A stretch of 11,557 bases of DNA from Pseudomonadota bacterium (GTDB lineage: Bacteria; Myxococcota_A; UBA796; SXON01), in the NCBI GenBank assembly GCA_043750895.1, contig JAYVAS010000249.1:1-11557 (forward strand), in the 5' to 3' direction. Numbering within the stretch: position 1 is the first letter of the stretch; each line of letters begins with the position of its first letter. Below are positions 5,073 to 11,557 of this stretch, in pieces. The translations under genes and the position numbers were made by a program. The notes under the pieces were generated by a model that was given only the letters and a program-made list of their open reading frames with translations, was not told where the DNA came from and made no database searches.

Positions 5073-6266
5073 ATGCGCATCTCGAACCGCGCCACGTCGA
5101 TCCAGGAGTCCGCGATCCGCAAGCTCGACGCGGCGGTGGGCCGCGCGAAGGGTGTGCACTTTCACAAGTTGAACATCGGCCAGCCGGACGTGCCGACGCC
5201 GCAGCCGATCCTCGACGCGCTGGCCCACGCCGACGGCCCCGTGCTCGCCTATGGGCCGGCCTCGGGCTTGCTCGAGTGTCGGGTCGCCGCGGCGGCGTTC
5301 CACGCACGAACCAGCCCCGGCCTGGGTCCGGAGCACGTGGTGGTCACCCAGGGTGGCTCCGAAGCCCTGCTGTTCGCGATGTGCGCGGTGTGCGATCCCG
5401 GGGACGAGATCCTCGTCCCCGAGCCCTACTACACCAACTACAACGGCTTCAGCACCGTGGCCGCCGCCAAGGTGGTGCCGGTCCGCACCCGCCTCGAAGA
5501 CGGCTTCGACATCCCGCCCGACGAGGTGCTCGACACCATGGTCACCCCCCGTACGCGGATGTTCCTGTTCGCGAACCCGGGCAACCCCACGGGCGCGGTC
5601 TACCAGGAGTCCACGCTGCGTCGGGTCGCCGCCTGGGCGCGCCGGCACAACCTCTGGCTCGTCGCCGACGAGGTCTACCGCGCGATCTGGTTCGACAAGC
5701 CGCCCCTGTCGGCCCTGGAGCTGGACGACCACCAGGACCACGTCATCGTCGTCGACTCGACCTCGAAGACCTTCTCCTCCTGCGGCCTGCGCATCGGCTT
5801 CTTCGTGTCCCGCAACGTCCAGCTCATGGAGCGGGTGGAGCGCCTCGGCCAGGCCCGCCTGGGCCCCCAGCCCCGGGCCCAACACGCCGCCATCGCCGCG
5901 CTCGGGCTCCCGCTCGACTTCTACGGCGAGGTGCGCAGCATCTACAAGCGCCGCGTGGACGCGATGATGGACGCCTTGGCCCGCCTGCCCGGCGTCGCCT
6001 ACCATCGCCCCGAGGGCGCCTTCTACACCATGGCGCGCCTCCCGGTGCCGGACACCGAGGCCTTCGCCCGGTTCATGGTCGAGGAGTTCCGCGATCACGA
6101 TTCGGGTCGCCCCGAGAGCGTGGTGGTCGCGCCGGGCCCCGGCTTCTACGCGGACCCCACCCAGGGCCGTGACCAGATCCGCCTCGCGGCGGTGCGGGAG
6201 GAGGCCGTCCTCACCCGGGCGATCGAGGTCCTCGGCAAGGGGATCGAGGCGTTTCGGGAGCGGTAG
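5073..6266 (+). CDS. PLP-dependent aminotransferase, class I/II (aspartate/aromatic aminotransferase family)
   Basis: GGAG lies 7 nt upstream of ATG 5073. The N-terminus is MRISNRATSIQESAIRKLDAA...NIGQPDVPTP, with ...GNPTGAVY... and SKTFSSCGLRIGF (the PLP-lysine SK motif), 397 aa. The antisense 429-aa ORF is rejected. Confidence 0.9.
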   Translation: MRISNRATSIQESAIRKLDAAVGRAKGVHFHKLNIGQPDVPTPQPILDALAHADGPVLAYGPASGLLECRVAAAAFHARTSPGLGPEHVVVTQGGSEALLFAMCAVCDPGDEILVPEPYYTNYNGFSTVAAAKVVPVRTRLEDGFDIPPDEVLDTMVTPRTRMFLFANPGNPTGAVYQESTLRRVAAWARRHNLWLVADEVYRAIWFDKPPLSALELDDHQDHVIVVDSTSKTFSSCGLRIGFFVSRNVQLMERVERLGQARLGPQPRAQHAAIAALGLPLDFYGEVRSIYKRRVDAMMDALARLPGVAYHRPEGAFYTMARLPVPDTEAFARFMVEEFRDHDSGRPESVVVAPGPGFYADPTQGRDQIRLAAVREEAVLTRAIEVLGKGIEAFRER

Positions 6267-6290
6267 TTGGTCACCGGCCCCCTCACCCGC

Positions 6291-6323
6291 CCTTCGGGCA
6301 CCCTCTCCCGGGAGGGAGAGGGG
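6291..6323. terminator. Bidirectional intrinsic-terminator-like GC hairpin between convergent genes
   Basis: gcccttcgggc (a 4-bp stem with a ttc loop) is immediately followed by ccctctccc-ggga-gggagaggg (a perfect 9-bp stem with a 4-nt loop, 6301-6322). It sits between the aminotransferase stop (6266) and the cyclase stop (6334-6336). There is no U-tract, which is common in high-GC genomes. Confidence 0.5.
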
Positions 6324-6333
6324 AAGAGGGTCC

Positions 6334-8418
6334 CTACCCCACCATCCCCACCGTCACCCGGTGCACCGGTACCAGCGTGGCGAAGCCCTTGACCGGGATC
6401 GCCCCGACCGGCTCGAAGCGGTCGTCGTCGATGGCGTTGCGGACATCGTCGGTCACCACCACCTGGCCCGCCTCGGCCTTGCCGCACAGCCGCGAGGCGA
6501 GGTTCACCGCGTCTCCGATGACGGTGTACTCGAGGCGCAGCGGGGACCCGATGTTGCCGACCACCACCTTGCCCGAAGCCACGCCGATGCCGGTGAGCAC
6601 GGCCGTCTGGCCCCGCGCGAGCCGTTCCACGTTCCACCGCGCCAGCGCCTCCTGCATCGCCAACGCCGCGGTGACGGCCCGTTTCCGGTGGTCGGGCTGG
6701 GGCATGGGGGCGCCGAAGTAGCAGAGGATGGCGTCGCCCATGTACTTGTCGATGATGCCCTCGTGCGCGAGCACGACCTCGACCAGCAGCGTGAAGTACT
6801 CGTTGAGCAGGGTCACGACCTCCGCCGCGCCCAGGCGTTCGGTCAACGGCGTGAAGCCGCGGATGTCGGAGATGAGCACCGTCACCTCGCGCTCCTCGCC
6901 CGCCAGCGAGAGCTCCCCCCGCGCCAACAGCTCTTGCACCACCTGGGTCGCCATGTACTTGCCGAACATGGTCCGGAGGCGTTCCCGCTCGTCGAGGCCC
7001 CGCGCCATGCGGTTGATCGCCCGGCCGAGATCCCCGACCTCGTCGACCCGATCCTCCGGGACCAGCACGTCGTAGCGTCCCGCCTCGATGGCGTGCGTGG
7101 CGTCCACGATCGCCCCGATGGGTCGGGCGATGCTGCGGGCGAGCAGCCCGGCGAGGAGGAACGCGACCCCGATGCCGCTGCACGCCACCATCCCCGTGCG
7201 CATCGCCCGGTCGGAGAGCTTCGTGAGCAGCGTGGTGATGTCGTAGTCGGCCTGGAGCACGGCGATCACCTGGCCGTCCGCGTCCCGCACCGGGGCCCAC
7301 GCCGAGATCCAGGTGCCGTGGGCGTCGGTGTAGGGGCCCTCCCGCCCGGCGCCTCCGTTCTCGAAGCTGACGCGCGTGGCGGGGCGCAGCTCGTTGGGGT
7401 CGCCCACGAAGGGCACCTCGTTGGTCATCACCACGAACCGGGCGCCGTCGCCGTCTCGACGCAGCGTGTACACGGGGCTGGTGAGCCCGGCCTCCTCCTG
7501 GATGCGGCGCAGCGTGTGCTGGAGGGACACGAACGCGGCCGAGTCGGCGGTGCCGCTGGCGGCCACTTCGGCGTGGAGCGCCGGGTCGATCCGATCGGCG
7601 CCGACGCGCACCGCGGTGAGGAGGTTGTCGCTCATGTGGTCGACCAGGTCGGCCCGGGCGTGTTGGAGGTCCAGGACCACGAGGATGCCGGTGGCGACGA
7701 GCACCGCGGCGGCGCCGGCGAGGCCGATGCGGGTGGCGAGGCGGCCGGCGAAGAACCGACGGAGCGCGTCGGCCGCGCCGTGTCGGGCCCAGGTGGCGCC
7801 GAAGCGGGCGAGCACCCAGCCGACGATGGCGAAGCCGATCGCGGCGCCCAACGCCCGTTGACGGACCATCGCGAGGTCCTCGGAGGGGCGCGTGACCACG
7901 ACGATGCCCGCCGGGCTCCCCCCAGGCGCGGCGATGGGGGCGTAGCCGCTGATCCAGGCACCATCGGCGTCGTAGTAGAGCCCCGTCCGGGTGGGGGTGC
8001 CGGACTCGAAGGCGGGCAACATCTCGGGCCGCAGGGGGTGGGTCTGGCCGACCTCGGGGATCTCGTCAGTGGTGATCACCTCGACCGCCGCATCGCCGGC
8101 CTTGCGCAGCGTGTAGATCGGAGTGCTGGCACCGGAGGCGGTCGCGGCGGCCCGAAGCGCACGGCGAAGGTCGATGAAGGTGTCGCTCAGGCCGTCTCGC
8201 GCGGCGCGCACCTGGGCGTGGGCGTGGGCATCGAGCCCCACCGCGACCTGGGTCGCGACCGACTGCGCCCTGATTCCGTGCTCGGCCGCCGTCTTCGCCT
8301 CCCAGGCGGCGTGCGCGCCGAGGATGCCGAGCGCGATGACCGCGGACGCGACGACCGGGCGCGGATCCAGGTGGCGGCGGGGCGGGATGGGCGGCCTAGA
8401 GGTCGAGAAGGGCGTCAA
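6334..8418 (-). CDS. Membrane receptor class III adenylate/guanylate cyclase: TM, periplasmic Cache-like sensor, TM, TM, second Cache-like sensor, TM, HAMP, cyclase
   Basis: The cyclase catalytic motifs are REVTVLISDIRGFTPLTE, YMGDAILCYFGAP and GIGVASGKVVVGNIGSPLRLEYTVIGDAVNLASRL. There are four hydrophobic helices, and two periplasmic repeats both end in a Cache-like Y.DA.G.WIS.(Y/W)AP(I/V) motif. The annotated start is TTG at 8418 (I verified this by reverse-complementing). There is no obvious SD; the start overlaps the upstream lipoprotein gene by 23 nt, so it is probably translationally coupled. The start could be slightly different. Confidence 0.85.
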   Translation of the reverse strand: MTPFSTSRPPIPPRRHLDPRPVVASAVIALGILGAHAAWEAKTAAEHGIRAQSVATQVAVGLDAHAHAQVRAARDGLSDTFIDLRRALRAAATASGASTPIYTLRKAGDAAVEVITTDEIPEVGQTHPLRPEMLPAFESGTPTRTGLYYDADGAWISGYAPIAAPGGSPAGIVVVTRPSEDLAMVRQRALGAAIGFAIVGWVLARFGATWARHGAADALRRFFAGRLATRIGLAGAAAVLVATGILVVLDLQHARADLVDHMSDNLLTAVRVGADRIDPALHAEVAASGTADSAAFVSLQHTLRRIQEEAGLTSPVYTLRRDGDGARFVVMTNEVPFVGDPNELRPATRVSFENGGAGREGPYTDAHGTWISAWAPVRDADGQVIAVLQADYDITTLLTKLSDRAMRTGMVACSGIGVAFLLAGLLARSIARPIGAIVDATHAIEAGRYDVLVPEDRVDEVGDLGRAINRMARGLDERERLRTMFGKYMATQVVQELLARGELSLAGEEREVTVLISDIRGFTPLTERLGAAEVVTLLNEYFTLLVEVVLAHEGIIDKYMGDAILCYFGAPMPQPDHRKRAVTAALAMQEALARWNVERLARGQTAVLTGIGVASGKVVVGNIGSPLRLEYTVIGDAVNLASRLCGKAEAGQVVVTDDVRNAIDDDRFEPVGAIPVKGFATLVPVHRVTVGMVG

Positions 8419-9331
8419 AGACGACGCCGTAGTTGTCCGGGTCGTAGACGGCGACGATCAGGTCCTCGTTCAACAGCATGATCGAGGGGTAGCCGACCAC
8501 GTCCATCCAGCCCTGAAGCGCGTACTCCTCGTCCCCCAGCACCGGGATGTTGGGGTTGGGGTAGGCGTCGTACCAGTCCGACAGGTCGCGGTTGGAGATG
8601 GCGCCGGCGCTGGCGTCCGAGTCCAGCACCGTGACCCAGTAGATGTCGCCGTCGTTCACCAGCCCGGGGATCGACCGGTACTCCCGATACTCGTCCCAGA
8701 TGGATGCCTGCCCGTCCAGGAACGCGGCGACTTCGTTGCAGTAGTAGCACCACACCCCGGACAGGTCGACCACGACGGGCTTGCCCTTGAATGCAAAATC
8801 GTAGATGTCCACCGTGTCGCCATATTGGTCCACCCAGGCGAAGCGGGGGAGCTGGTCGCCGGTGCTCGCCGTGCCGCGCCACCCCGGGTCGCTCATGGCG
8901 TCCTTGTCGGGGTTGTAGGGCCAGTAGCCCTCGTAGATGCGGTCGTCGGCGTCGGTCGGGTCGTGGCCCTCCGTCACCTCCCAGCCGTCCAGGTAGGTGT
9001 CGCCGTCGGTGTCGGCCGCGGTGGGATCGCTCCCGAGATCGACCTCCTCGCCGTCGCCGATCCCGTCGTCGTCGCTGTCGGTGTCGTCGGGGTCGGTGCC
9101 CCGGTCCGCCTCGTCGTCGTCGCTCAGGCCGTCACCGTCGCTGTCCACGGGGTCGGTGGTGTCGGTGTCGGCGTCGGCGTCCGCGTCGGTGTCGGTGTCG
9201 GTGTCCGCGTCCGCCGGGTCCCCGTCGCCTCGCCCGTCGCCGCCCGCGTGGGAGGTGGCCTCATCCTTGGTTCCGGAGGCGCAGCCGAGGGACACGGCGG
9301 CGAGCAGGCTGATCACGGCGACGAGACGCAT
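8396..9331 (-). CDS. Lipoprotein with thrombospondin-type-3-like Asp-rich Ca-binding repeats and a C-terminal thioredoxin-like (TlpA/redoxin-type) domain with WCYYC motif
   Basis: The track ORF starts at a GTG at 9364. The internal ATG (track 9331) has GGAG 7 nt upstream and begins the lipoprotein signal MRLVAVISLLAAVSLGC, so I prefer it. Then comes about 110 aa of D/T/A/G repeats (DADTDTDTDADADADTDTTDPVDSDGDGLSDDDEADRGTDPDDTDSDDDGIGDGEEVDLGSDP...). Then FKGKPVVVDLSGVWCYYCNEV (a CxxC thioredoxin-fold motif) and YPSIMLLNEDLIVAV. Stop is TAG at 8396-8398. Confidence 0.75.
   Translation of the reverse strand: MRLVAVISLLAAVSLGCASGTKDEATSHAGGDGRGDGDPADADTDTDTDADADADTDTTDPVDSDGDGLSDDDEADRGTDPDDTDSDDDGIGDGEEVDLGSDPTAADTDGDTYLDGWEVTEGHDPTDADDRIYEGYWPYNPDKDAMSDPGWRGTASTGDQLPRFAWVDQYGDTVDIYDFAFKGKPVVVDLSGVWCYYCNEVAAFLDGQASIWDEYREYRSIPGLVNDGDIYWVTVLDSDASAGAISNRDLSDWYDAYPNPNIPVLGDEEYALQGWMDVVGYPSIMLLNEDLIVAVYDPDNYGVVFDALLDL
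9150..9216. repeat. Imperfect hexanucleotide tandem repeat (GTCGGT/GTCGGC/GTCCGC)n inside the lipoprotein gene, encoding (D-T/D-A)n
   Basis: The plus strand reads ggtgtcggtgtcggcgtcggcgtccgcgtcggtgtcggtgtcggtgtccgcgtccgcc, about 9-10 hexamer units. This is a slippage-prone coding microsatellite. Confidence 0.6.
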
Positions 9332-9374
9332 CCGAGGGCTCCGATGACCGGAGGAGCCTACCACGCGGGCGCGA

Positions 9375-10838
9375 TCAGTCGGTCTTGGCGAGGTCCGACA
9401 GGAGCACCGTCTTCATGAGCTCGCCCCCGCTCCCGACCACCGTGATGCGGTCGATGCGGGACGCGATGTCGCCCAGGGCCTCGAGCTCCTTGAGGCGGAG
9501 CAGCACCGGGTTGTTCTCGAGCATGCGCGCGGTGTTGGCGAGCTGACGGGTGGCGGCCGTCTCTTCGCGGCGCTTGATGGAGAGCGCTTCGGCCTCCTTC
9601 CGCGCCAGGGTGACCCGGTTGAGCAGGTCCTTGATCTCGCCCGACAGGATGATGTCCTTCACCGCCGCCAGCTCCAACGCGAGCCCGATCGCCGGCAGGG
9701 TCGCGCGGGCCCGGGCGATGATGGCCTCCCCGAGGGACTCCCGCTCGGCGAGCAGCGCTTCGAGGGTGCGGGACGACACCACCTCGCGCAAGGCGAGCTG
9801 GACGGTGACGTACACCTGGTTCGGCCAGTCGGGCTGCCGCAACACCGTGACCGGGTCCACCACCCGCACCGTCACCGCTGGCTTCACGCGCAGGGGGACC
9901 TCGTCGGCGGTGAGCAGGTCCTGGGCGGCGACGTCGAGGGCCTGCAACGAGAGCGGTACGCCCTTGAGCGACCACCGGGACCCGGTCCACGCGCGGTAGC
10001 GCCCTTCTGGGAGCACCCGCCAGGGTTGCCCGTCGCGCACCAGCACCACGGCGAGGGCGTCGTGGCCGCTCGCTTCGGTCCAGTCCGTCCCGTGCGTGCC
10101 GGCGGGGAGCGGGTCGTCGGGTCCGAGGGGGGTGGGCTCGGCCAGGCAGTCGAAGCGCAGCACGGTGTAGGGTCCCGCGGCCTCCCAGCCGATGTAGCGG
10201 CCACCGTCCAGCACCTGGAGGAAGGCGCCGTTGCGCAGGACGACGGCCCGCTCGTGCTCTCCCACCTGCAGCTCCACCTCACCGTCGATACGCTCGCCGC
10301 GATCGACGGGCGCGGCGTTGAAGCCGCGGGGGATGGCGGCGATCCGCCAGGCGTCGGCGTCCCAGACGCGCCAACGGCCCGCCGGCACCAGGCTGTGGGG
10401 GCGTCCGGCGTACTGCAGCAACCCGGGCTCGATGTACCCGGTCACGGTGGCGCCGGGCGTGTTCGCGGGCAGAGGGTCCGACTCGGTGGCCAGGACGGGA
10501 GGCGCGCGCCGGTCCAGCCGGAGCAGGGTGGGTTCACCGTGGGCGTCCCACCAGCGCCAGCGACCGCGTTCCAACACCTGCACGAACTGGCCGTGGAGCA
10601 GCACCACCACGCGCTCGTGGGCGTCCACCGAGATGATGCGCGCGCCCTCCAGGTCGTCGGGCAGCGGCCCCCCGGCGGGCACCGGCTGGATGGGGAAGCC
10701 GGTGTCGATCTCGATGAACTCGTGGAGACCGCCGAAGGTCCACACCGTGTGGCGGCCCGGACCGTAGAGGCGCTCCAGGCGCCCGTCCTTGAGGTGGGCG
10801 GTGCGGGCGCCCCGCTTGACGACGACGGTGTGGAACAT
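9375..10838 (-). CDS. Anchorless SPFH/band-7 (stomatin/prohibitin-type) protein with four N-terminal tandem partial-SPFH beta-repeats (MVP-like architecture)
   Basis: ATG at 10838 with an in-frame TGA 5 codons upstream; stop is TGA at about 9375. C-terminal half is a canonical SPFH core plus stomatin-type tail: AVTVRVVDPVTVLRQ...NQVYVTVQLALREVVSSRTLEALLAERESLGEAIIARARATLPAIGLALELAAVKDIILSGEIKDLLNRVTLARKEAEALSIKRREETAATRQLANTARMLENNPVLLRLKELEALGDIASRIDRITVV. There is no N-terminal TM helix. The N-terminal 300 aa contain repeated units matching the SPFH N-terminal consensus (ERGVV.RFGK..R.LEPGLHF..P..D.V.KVDLR): aa 4-46 TVVVKRGARTAHLKDGRLERLYGPGRHTVW; aa 75-109 ERVVVLLHGQFVQVLERGRWRWWDAHGEPTLLRLD; a degenerate unit at about aa 150-170; aa 196-230 ERAVVLRNGAFLQVLDGGRYIGWEAAGPYTVLRFD; aa 260-300 ALAVVLVRDGQPWRVLPEGRYRAWTGSRWSLKGVPLSLQALD (the start of the real SPFH domain). 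Confidence 0.8.
   Translation of the reverse strand: MFHTVVVKRGARTAHLKDGRLERLYGPGRHTVWTFGGLHEFIEIDTGFPIQPVPAGGPLPDDLEGARIISVDAHERVVVLLHGQFVQVLERGRWRWWDAHGEPTLLRLDRRAPPVLATESDPLPANTPGATVTGYIEPGLLQYAGRPHSLVPAGRWRVWDADAWRIAAIPRGFNAAPVDRGERIDGEVELQVGEHERAVVLRNGAFLQVLDGGRYIGWEAAGPYTVLRFDCLAEPTPLGPDDPLPAGTHGTDWTEASGHDALAVVLVRDGQPWRVLPEGRYRAWTGSRWSLKGVPLSLQALDVAAQDLLTADEVPLRVKPAVTVRVVDPVTVLRQPDWPNQVYVTVQLALREVVSSRTLEALLAERESLGEAIIARARATLPAIGLALELAAVKDIILSGEIKDLLNRVTLARKEAEALSIKRREETAATRQLANTARMLENNPVLLRLKELEALGDIASRIDRITVVGSGGELMKTVLLSDLAKTD
9939..10829 (-). repeat. Intragenic tandem protein-level repeats (4-5 copies, about 65-120 aa spacing) of the SPFH N-terminal beta-hairpin module
   Basis: See the aligned units listed for CDS 9375..10838. 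The shared pattern is E-R-x-V-V-L-x-x-G-x-x-x-x-V-L-x-x-G-R-x-x-x-W...L-R-x-D. Confidence 0.6.
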
Positions 10839-11078
10839 GATGGGCTCGGGTCAGGGAGAGGGAGGGAGGACGGTCCTGTGCCGCCCGCGGCAATCCCCGC
10901 GGCCACGGTCGGGACCGGGTTCCGGCGACGTGCGACCCGAGGGCCGAACGGACCGGGGGTCCCCGTGGGCAGGCGAGGGTCGGCGCCGGGCGTCGAACCC
11001 AGGGCGGAACAGGGCCGCCTCCCAGGGAGTGCCGGTCGCTACCCCGGCGGTGGGCCTTTCGACCCGCGGATCTGTCGG

Positions 11079-11095
11079 ATTGGGCTGAAGCCAAT
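11079..11095. promoter_or_regulatory. Candidate transcription-factor site: 5-bp perfect inverted repeat ATTGG-N7-CCAAT
   Basis: ATTGGGCTGAAGCCAAT lies about 240 nt upstream of the SPFH gene start, in a locally lower-GC stretch. This call is purely sequence-pattern based. Confidence 0.2.
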
Positions 11096-11112
11096 TGCGC
11101 AACCGTGAGCGT

Positions 11113-11131
11113 CGCCCCCAAGTAGGGGGCG
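11113..11131. other. Stable GC stem-loop (7-bp stem CGCCCCC/GGGGGCG with 5-nt loop AAGTA) in the long intergenic region
   Basis: The sequence cgccccc-aagta-gggggcg is directly visible. It is followed by a second small palindrome, cagg-agttgaa-cctg. There is no U-tract, so its function is unclear (terminator, attenuator or RNA structural element). Confidence 0.35.
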
Positions 11132-11305
11132 CAGGAGTTGAACCTGTGAGTGCGGTGCCCTCCGGAAGCGTTCGGTACGGTCGAAGCGCAGGACGGCCTT
11201 TGGGAACACCCGGCTCGCTGCTCACCGTTCGTACTGACTTCCGACGCGACATCGCCCGTCGGGAGTAACGCGGCGTTGCCCGCGCACGGCGGCGCTGATC
11301 ACCGC

Positions 11306-11341
11306 GGCGGGGATCCCACCTTCAGCACCCGCGGGTCCCCG
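11306..11341. terminator. Candidate terminator hairpin downstream of the LRR-like gene
   Basis: gcggggatccc-(15 nt loop)-gggtccccgc is an about 10-bp GC stem with one bulge, about 55 nt after the TGA of the partial minus-strand gene. No U-tract. Confidence 0.25.
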
Positions 11342-11395
11342 CCCAGTCCTCTGCTCCCCCCGCGCGCTTGGCGGAACGGAGCCGGTGCCGAACCT

Positions 11396-11557
11396 CAGGG
11401 CCCATTGTCCTCGATGGTGACCACGCCGTGGATGTTCTTGACGCCGATGGCGTCCAGCAGGGCGTCGATCTCGGCCTCGGTGAGCGACGGGTTTCCGCGG
11501 ATGGTGAGGTCGTCGACGGAGGTGAGGTTGTGGAGGGCGCTGAGGTCGTCGAGGGCG
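11396..11557 (-). CDS. 3' end (C-terminal about 53 aa) of a gene running in from beyond the window; leucine-rich-repeat-like C-terminus
   Basis: The minus-strand translation of 11557->11396 has high GC3: ALDDLSALHNLTSVDDLTIRGNPSLTEAEIDALLDAIGVKNIHGVVTIEDNGP, then TGA (plus 'tca' about 11395-11397). It has an L..L..L..L.I.GN..L periodicity. It is not in the ORF track because the start lies outside the window. Confidence 0.5.

Follow-up and report, generated by a model that had tools for sequence, protein, structure and literature searches.

The stretch of DNA analysed here (11,557 nucleotides (nt), contig JAYVAS010000249.1 of assembly GCA_043750895.1, from a bacterium of the GTDB lineage Myxococcota_A; hereafter the window) has a base composition of 72% G+C and carries on its minus strand three consecutive genes, which encode a slipin-family SPFH protein, a lipoprotein and a receptor class III cyclase with a HAMP domain. 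A first-pass annotation had proposed these genes as a putative operon that would wire a scaffold protein, an envelope calcium/redox lipoprotein and cyclic AMP (cAMP) synthesis into a single envelope-sensing module. Our analysis leads to another reading, to which we give a probability of about three in four: three unrelated units lie side by side in one lineage and are probably read as one transcript, and the conserved unit is the slipin gene together with an RNA resembling a circularly permuted tRNA that is encoded directly upstream of it. Judged by sequence comparison over the wider slipin family, the conserved unit is a tRNA or tRNA-like RNA followed by the slipin gene. The RNA-slipin pair appears to be new and the three-gene operon ordinary; the literature search returned no paper linking SPFH/slipin proteins with tRNA genes or tRNA-like RNAs.

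The 556-nt gap in front of the slipin gene (10839-11394) aligns as DNA with the upstream regions of SPFH orthologues of 79%, 65% and 60% identity, and nhmmer recovers the RNA region upstream of SPFH genes at 46-68% identity as well. The RNA, about 400 nt long, is laid out as a 5′ hairpin, a permuted tRNA-like core, a variable middle part, a long 3′ hairpin and a pyrimidine tract (Table 1). RNAalifold, run on seven sequences, predicted 73 pairs, of which 36 show compensatory changes. Two covariance models were built, R1 for the 5′ hairpin with the tRNA-like core and R2 for the 3′ hairpin; the window RNA scores 131.9 bits with R1 and 126.1 bits with R2, full-length copies of the window clade score 72-134 bits with R1, and R2 matches L009, a locus outside its seed, at 105.9 bits. 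Because the MAFFT alignment of the tRNA-like core was not structure-consistent, the core sequences were realigned by the covariance model. In the R1-fitted alignment 88.9% of the cells are paired, compared with 44-50% in slid controls, 17 pairs change on both sides, and the covariation score of 0.431 (against at most 0.12) was reached by none of 500 shuffles. Such changes between related sequences show the RNA to be under selection for its fold.

Several other identities of the region were considered and rejected. Rfam returned no known RNA family at E ≤ 1, and at E ≤ 10 only twister-sister, with 16 bits against a gathering threshold of 34. A reading frame of 133 amino acids (aa) within the gap (10851-11252, minus strand) was reported as a protein gene by none of three gene callers, and the conservation follows the RNA pairing. 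The 3′ hairpin does not qualify as a family-wide leader, given that R2 matches are confined to the window clade.

In all 11 copies of the core the order is the same: T-arm, closed acceptor hairpin, D-arm, anticodon arm. By its predicted pairing the core is a tRNA cloverleaf in which the 3′ half stands before the 5′ half, that is, a circularly permuted one. The T-arm hairpin has 5 bp in the parsed copies, and three of its four stem pairs covary. The acceptor stem is paired at 7/7 positions in ten copies and at 6/7 or 7/7, depending on register, in the window, and its sequence differs in all 11. The D-arm is canonical in L006 (TA GCTC AGTTGGTCA GAGC G) and in others, with the usual GG, and its helix is paired in 59.5% of the cells. 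The anticodon arm has 5 bp, four of them with compensatory changes; its loop is kept as C-U-NNN-R-N, with a triplet that varies by lineage. Covariation supports the T, acceptor and anticodon helices of the core. ARAGORN called neither a tRNA nor a tmRNA in the window; once the two halves had been swapped in silico it called a tRNA in 12 of 13 lineages, compared with none of the 13 in native order. The hairpin that precedes the core has an A-U pair in the window and in L174 where the others have G-C.

A tmRNA, whether standard or two-piece, was rejected: none was called, a G3-U70 pair is confined to 2 of the 11 copies, and the RNA has both a D-arm and an anticodon arm. Two abutting tRNA genes were likewise rejected for the window clade, where the acceptor strands pair 7/7 over a loop of 2-8 nt and no complete tRNA is found; that arrangement does explain the weak R1 matches in distant loci such as L072 and L037.

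The link between slipin genes and tRNA extends through the wider family. A tRNA on the same strand ends less than 600 nt upstream of the slipin reading frame in 57 of 83 loci, nearly all tRNAs within 10 kb of slipin genes lie upstream on the same strand, and the weaker R1 matches in front of nearly all other slipin genes are real tRNA genes. The tRNA-slipin loci span Gammaproteobacteria, Myxococcota and Planctomycetota (L029-L087), with arrays of 12-23 tRNAs upstream of the slipin gene in Cellvibrionaceae and of 9-10 in a Myxococcota bin; the tRNA form is carried by cultured Lysobacter enzymogenes (L037, L041). In the single-repeat sister loci L013, L020, L021 and L025 the same 5′ hairpin precedes a tRNA of normal order, and the permutation is therefore the derived state. 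In the permuted copies L005 and L028 the acceptor 3′ strand is still followed by ACCA, which fits an origin from two tandem tRNAs, as proposed for YrlA. The slipin-adjacent tRNAs of Lysobacter and Pseudoxanthomonas (L037 9335-9408; L072 9307-9380) are odd, with ARAGORN calling a tRNA-His(atg) and an undetermined tRNA with a 2-base 'anticodon' that abuts a second tRNA; by their sequence they may be tRNA-like and not working tRNAs.

The protein encoded next to the RNA belongs to a graded series of relatives in the protein database that are named "slipin family protein", whose members, of about 360, 490 and 615 aa, differ in how many repeat blocks they have at the N-terminus. Pfam at E ≤ 0.01 finds Band_7 (PF01145) alone, at aa 264-426 with 78.3 bits against a gathering threshold of 23.6, and no match to Vault or MVP_shoulder; about 260 N-terminal residues are without any Pfam family. 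The AlphaFold2 model made with the family alignment (pLDDT 88.4) begins with five small beta units (aa 1-300), which are followed by the SPFH domain and then a long helix; it has no membrane segment. The protein has no hydrophobic N-terminus and no signal peptide, beta strands beginning at residue 2. In Foldseek the C-terminal half of the model finds stomatin, HflK/C and prohibitin as best matches, and full-length matches are to major vault proteins (MVP) only (520-590 columns, E down to 2.6e-11, TM 0.33-0.38). The model thus suggests a likeness of architecture to MVP and leaves homology of the repeats as a candidate. As the first-pass annotation had stated, the NfeD partner that usually accompanies SPFH genes is absent, PF01957 having been seen in none of the gene contexts examined. 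This absence is accounted for by the nature of the protein, which is not a membrane stomatin but a slipin free of membrane helices, with the upstream tRNA or tRNA-like RNA as its conserved partner. PADLOC gave no defence match for the SPFH protein or for the lipoprotein.

The order slipin-lipoprotein-cyclase, by contrast with the RNA-slipin pair, was found only on contigs whose proteins are 100% identical to those of the window. In a scan of one genome per species, comprising 80 SPFH loci, tblastn detected the lipoprotein at none and a cyclase at one (the L006 locus). The SPFH relatives of 79% (L004/L027), 68% (L173) and 65% identity (P0005) have neither partner, and downstream of the slipin gene they carry a DUF1295 gene, a convergent LysR gene and a convergent gene of 839 aa, respectively. 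The next gene is convergent in most close relatives, so that the slipin gene is normally the last of its unit; where the next gene is co-directional it encodes a MopE-like, a P450 or an unknown protein. Twelve loci of cyclase orthologues, with up to 10 kb of flank, contain neither the lipoprotein C-domain nor an SPFH gene, and cyclase and SPFH genes are both missing from six contexts of lipoprotein homologues (L088, L089/L090, L175, L176, L177). The first-pass annotation had tied its module to synteny of the three orthologues in related genomes; as they are together in no other sampled genome, the reading as a conserved envelope-sensing cAMP module fails on that very point. Five of the sampled contigs (L008, L013, L016, L025 and L027) are high in G+C with Myxococcota-like gene content and are deposited as Klebsiella pneumoniae/Enterobacterales; they look like mislabelled metagenome bins.

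The contig L088 indicates how the neighbourhood arose. There, the lipoprotein gene (70% aa identity) is followed by genes for an aminotransferase (87%), an MA-type peptidase (74%), a 449-aa membrane protein (80%) and a sulfatase (71%), in the same order and orientation as in the window. The stops of the lipoprotein and aminotransferase genes are 34 nt apart where the window has the 2.1-kb cyclase gene, and a PmbA/TldD pair takes the place of the window SPFH gene. Because L088 keeps the lipoprotein together with these four downstream genes, the lipoprotein gene stands at its ancestral place and the other two became its neighbours by rearrangement. For the cyclase, the comparison of the two sequences would fit either an insertion in the window lineage or a loss in L088. 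The PmbA/TldD pair lies directly upstream of the lipoprotein gene in L088 (4556-7929) and near the SPFH gene in the P0005 contig; this hints at an older common neighbourhood that may have been rearranged later.

The description of the gene borders in the first-pass annotation proved accurate. On the minus strand the TGA stop of the SPFH gene (9377-9375) is separated by 43 nt from the lipoprotein ATG at 9331, which has its own GGAG at 9343-9340, and the lipoprotein TAG (8398-8396) lies inside the cyclase reading frame, giving an overlap of 23 nt with the cyclase TTG at 8418. Three other public contigs encode identical proteins, with independent gene calls of the same boundaries. Behind the upstream in-frame stop (8460), the TTG at 8418 is the sole ATG/GTG/TTG that precedes the first transmembrane helix; translation from GTG 8241, the next possible start, would lose this helix, which is present in nearly all orthologues. 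At the site of the TTG (8416-8418; about 8873-8881 in L088) the window reads GTC TTT GAC and L088 reads GTC TTC GAC, so the start codon exists because of a synonymous TTC-to-TTT change in a Phe codon of the lipoprotein gene, where TTT is a rare codon (G+C at third codon positions, GC3, of 94%).

All that the 43-nt spacer can form is a 6-bp hairpin lacking a U tract, and the terminator scan, which is weak for DNA of 72% G+C, gave no terminator-like site between the three genes. For these two reasons read-through transcription is plausible, and by the sequence of the cluster so is co-transcription of the three genes. The sigma-70 promoter scan, uninformative for this G+C content and phylum, returned no matches in the window. 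Downstream of the cyclase stop, and between it and the convergent aminotransferase gene (5073-6266, plus strand), a strong hairpin is found, as after neither of the other two genes, the region 6262-6340 folding at -41.2 kcal/mol in ViennaRNA; it is likely to be the end of the transcription unit. The earlier claim of one operon is therefore borne out as to orientation, short junctions and the absence, in these scans, of a separating promoter or terminator before the hairpin behind the cyclase; that the genes are co-transcribed is something we infer. Bacterial genomes abound in co-directional genes with short junctions, and therefore the arrangement alone signifies no more than chance would give.

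The lipoprotein has a signal peptide that ends in L-G-C (MRLVAVISLLAAVSLG-C), a predicted lipobox. In the family alignment (A4) Cys17 is near-invariant and W194, C195 and C198 are invariant, and the motif W-C-x-x-C is invariant across 22 homologues. TSP3_bac (PF18884) matches two stretches with 39.9 bits against a gathering threshold of 25, and calcium binding may be expected from the family. The thioredoxin-type models remain below their cut-offs (AhpC-TSA 19.4, below 26; Thioredoxin_2 18.7, below 27). Many family members carry matches to PF00578, PF13899 or PF08534, and a PDB search gave a weak match to 4hqs of the thioredoxin family (E 0.0085). The protein is like the TlpA/ResA oxidoreductases in its W-C-x-x-C and in weak matches to AhpC-TSA, Thioredoxin_2, ResA and TlpA; unlike them, it scores below the cut-offs and has an N-terminal Asp-rich TSP3 region and a lipobox. 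The family is large, with members from Myxococcota-type metagenome bins; in L177 (4210-5903) two paralogous TSP3/thioredoxin-like lipoprotein genes are found in tandem with a 4-nt overlap.

The cyclase runs from a membrane helix through sensor 1, two membrane helices, sensor 2 and a further membrane helix to the HAMP domain (PF00672, aa 425-475, directly behind the last membrane helix, 55.3 bits against 25) and the catalytic domain (Guanylate_cyc, PF00211, 82.8 bits against 21.9). Its two extracytoplasmic modules are paralogous to each other (40% identity, E 2e-25), and the earlier description as a dual-sensor receptor cyclase is upheld. No confident Pfam family was found for the sensor modules, dCache_1 reaching just 15.9 bits against 45. 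Among solved structures the catalytic domain comes closest to those of 6fht (E 2e-38), 2w01, 3r5g and 1wc1, and the motifs, read by eye (D in SDIRGFT; K and D in DKYMGDA; T in EYTVIGD; N and R in VNLASRL), suggest a Lys/Thr adenylate cyclase of subclass IIIb. The likeness to HAMP class III cyclases such as Pseudomonas aeruginosa CyaB (3r5g) and Spirulina CyaC (1wc1) lies in the HAMP and Guanylate_cyc domains and in the catalytic match (E 4e-30 to 1e-21); the window cyclase differs from both by its two tandem paralogous extracytoplasmic modules. Orthologues form about 65 clusters at 45-60% identity. The sensor module also occurs singly in cyclases of about 490 aa (P0245-P0249, 64-72% identity) and fused to SpoIIE/PP2C phosphatases (P0308, P0309), which makes it a portable sensor domain. 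Two other interpretations of the cyclase were rejected. The PADLOC PycC models of Pycsar match the catalytic domain (E 3e-26), which reflects general class III homology, and the next gene is the convergent aminotransferase. Recent foreign origin finds no mark in base composition, since GC3 is uniform (0.92-0.95) over all seven genes.

At the far end of the window, positions 11395-11557 (minus strand) are the 3′ end of the gene upstream of the RNA, of which L001 (1-1191) holds 396 residues; the C-terminus of its product resembles leucine-rich-repeat sequence.

Table 1. Positions of the genes and RNA elements discussed (window coordinates unless a locus is named)
Feature	Position	Strand	Basis or remark
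Slipin-family SPFH protein of 487 aa without membrane helix; five beta repeats at the N-terminus, then the SPFH domain and a long helix	9375..10838	-	
Lipoprotein of 311 aa; signal peptide (lipobox Cys17), then Asp-rich TSP3 repeats and, at the C-terminus, a thioredoxin-like domain that carries W-C-Y-Y-C	8396..9331	-	
Receptor class III cyclase, 694 aa	6334..8418	-	Pfam, internal duplication
Conserved structured RNA, about 400 nt, upstream of the SPFH gene	10853..11255	-	DNA conservation, RNAalifold, covariance models
Candidate -10-like element TACTCC for the RNA/SPFH unit; the window version is weak	11262..11267	-	Position shared by orthologous loci
5′ hairpin GCAGCG..GGG-TGTT-CCC..CCGTCCTGC with near-invariant GCCGTCC(C/T)GCG	11188..11221	-	12 pairs
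T-arm-like hairpin CAGG-TTCAACT-CCTG	11132..11146	-	TTCRANY loop in every copy
Closed acceptor-like hairpin CGCCCCC-TACTT-GGGGGCG	11113..11131	-	7-nt strands, loop 2-8 nt across copies
D-arm-like region AC GCTC ACGGTT GCGC A	11096..11112	-	Imperfect in the window
Anticodon-arm-like hairpin ATTGG-CTTCAGC-CCAAT, triplet UCA	11079..11095	-	98.2% paired
Long 3′ hairpin with conserved internal loops (CCTGYCCRCGGG ... CYCCGACCGYGGCCG)	10883..10987	-	35 pairs, 26 compensatory
C/U-rich tract behind the 3′ hairpin and ahead of the SPFH start codon	10853..10873	-	Pyrimidine-rich in most aligned copies
Spacer hairpin GGCUCC-N10-GGAGCC, including the lipoprotein Shine-Dalgarno GGAG (9340-9343)	9337..9358	-	ViennaRNA fold of 9320-9390
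Lipoprotein/cyclase overlap, 23 nt	8396..8418	-	Window GTCTTTGAC, L088 GTCTTCGAC
Hairpin CCCUCUCCC-UCCC-GGGAGAGGG 3′ of the cyclase stop, between convergent genes	6301..6322	-	9 bp, G+C-rich
Example tRNA-slipin loci	L039 4644-9153; L055 3445-9142; L066 5392-9134; L082 8044-9405		

The mechanism that we regard as likely can be sketched as follows. The slipin gene would be transcribed from the promoter of the upstream tRNA or RNA. In several orthologous loci a TAC... hexamer stands 30-40 nt before the 5′ hairpin, preceded by TTGACG at -35 in L014/L015 (TTGACG-17-TACACA/TACTCA) and, in L005, by TTGCCG (TTGCCG-18-TACCAA). The RNA may serve as a leader, either processed or structured, or be a stable RNA partner. 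In the relatives that bear a tRNA, RNase P and 3′ processing would free the tRNA and leave the mRNA; in the window clade the closed acceptor stem would block this release, and the tRNA-shaped domain would stay in the leader or in a protein-binding stable RNA. In the window lineage the transcript would run on through the lipoprotein and cyclase genes to the hairpin at 6301-6322, the cyclase being translated by coupling from the TTG inside the end of the lipoprotein gene. The lipoprotein gene is the resident at the ancestral place beside the aminotransferase gene, with the cyclase gene between them in the window lineage only. Among the contexts and analyses made there is no sign that the SPFH protein, the lipoprotein and the cyclase act together.

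How far the three genes belong together has to be weighed against several other explanations. The least credible of those considered is the original proposal, in which SPFH scaffold, calcium/redox lipoprotein and cyclase are expressed from one operon as one envelope-sensing cAMP module. The tight junctions, the overlap, the lack of a terminator between the genes and the creation of the TTG by a synonymous change would suit it, as would the fact that the lipoprotein and the sensor modules of the cyclase are both predicted to be extracytoplasmic; against it, the trio occurs only on identical-protein contigs while the relatives of each gene stand in other contexts, nothing obvious marks the SPFH protein, which lacks both membrane helix and signal peptide, as an envelope scaffold, and in L088 the lipoprotein gene stands at its place while the other two are missing. 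It is also very improbable that the slipin family has a looser, recurrent connection to cyclic-nucleotide signalling in which the lipoprotein is a passenger. Such a connection draws on the locus L006/L007/L008 (60% SPFH orthologue; L006 9496-12462), where a cyclase gene lies 20 nt downstream of the slipin gene, followed by a convergent gene for a cyclic-nucleotide (cNMP)-binding protein, with no lipoprotein, an adjacency independent of that in the window; a class III cyclase is thus within two genes downstream in 2 of about 13 lineages of the multi-repeat clade (the window; L006/L007). The two cyclases, however, are of different families, that of L006 having a dCache sensor and no HAMP domain where the window has the dual novel sensor with HAMP, their catalytic domains are 39% identical, and no cyclase lies within 10 kb at 79 of the 80 genome loci. 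Myxococcota encode many cyclases, and the two adjacencies may therefore be due to chance. Separate transcription of the adjacent genes, with promoters of their own for the lipoprotein and/or the cyclase and with the spacer hairpin ending the RNA-slipin transcript, is unlikely but deserves more credit. The slipin gene is normally last in its unit, with a convergent gene next in most relatives, the spacer does contain a 6-bp hairpin, and the promoter scan is uninformative here; yet a U tract is missing from this hairpin, the scan returned no sigma-70-like site, and the 23-nt overlap leaves no non-coding room for a promoter.

Some of our own observations do count against the juxtaposition of unrelated units beside a conserved RNA-slipin pair. 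The covariation counts come from an alignment fitted to the structure, which favours that structure, and the window copy is the one that ARAGORN does not call after un-permuting, its T/acceptor junction being 1 nt shorter and its D-stem having a mismatch. The slipin-cyclase adjacency in L006/L007 leaves room, by gene order, for a recurrent SPFH-cyclase link, and in L175 (5001-7650) a lipoprotein homologue of 55% identity has a histidine kinase/response regulator pair 69 nt downstream, which makes a second instance of this lipoprotein family in front of a signalling gene. The synonymous change that creates the TTG suggests from the codon comparison that the overlap is used, and perhaps selected, in the window lineage. 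Sampling, finally, is thin, with the closest relatives at 79%, 70% and 60% identity, and the order may be conserved within an unsampled genus. We nevertheless prefer the lineage-specific juxtaposition of the three genes, with the RNA and the slipin gene as the conserved unit.

Several known systems share single features with this unit. Compared with the stomatin/NfeD operons (Pyrococcus horikoshii PH1511-PH1510; Escherichia coli QmcA-YbbJ), the window protein has neither the N-terminal membrane anchor nor the NfeD partner; it has about 300 aa of N-terminal beta repeats, and its conserved neighbour is an RNA, not a protein. With the major vault protein it shares, in its predicted structure, repeated small beta domains, an SPFH-like shoulder and a long helix in the same order; it differs in having five repeats and not nine and an identity of 12-15%. 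True bacterial MVP homologues form a different, longer family. YrlA is a circularly permuted tRNA mimic encoded beside its protein partner, and a dimeric-tRNA origin has been proposed for it. The window RNA resembles such YrlA-type Y RNAs, the partners of Ro60/Rsr, as a permuted tRNA mimic with T, closed acceptor and D stem-loops beside a protein gene; unlike YrlA, it keeps a complete local anticodon stem-loop, with the break in the variable region, and has extra 5′ and 3′ domains that bring it to about 400 nt. No Ro60/TROVE gene is present in any listed context, and no Rfam family was found at the thresholds used, in the window or in the sampled loci. In E. coli, thrU-tyrU-glyT-thrT-tufB is a tRNA-mRNA operon. 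It is matched by the slipin loci in which co-oriented tRNA genes stand directly upstream of the protein gene (57/83), and differs in that the slipin link is family-wide across phyla and that the tRNA of the window clade is a non-releasable permuted domain within a larger RNA.

Vaults carry small RNAs. The RNA might be more than a leader and be the partner of the vault-like slipin in a bacterial cage-type ribonucleoprotein that binds tRNA-shaped RNA, in which case the slipin genes found behind tRNA genes and arrays throughout the family would represent this partnership in its ancestral form; this we hold to be a distinctly doubtful possibility.

On the one hand, the three-gene cluster is an ordinary lineage-specific neighbourhood of known kinds of genes, for which no new signalling module is warranted. 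On the other hand, the RNA-slipin pair could represent, beside YrlA, a second class of circularly permuted tRNA mimics in bacteria, and could tie a whole SPFH subfamily to tRNA genes across several phyla. The slipin may also serve as a tractable bacterial model for the study of SPFH/vault-type cages and small RNAs.

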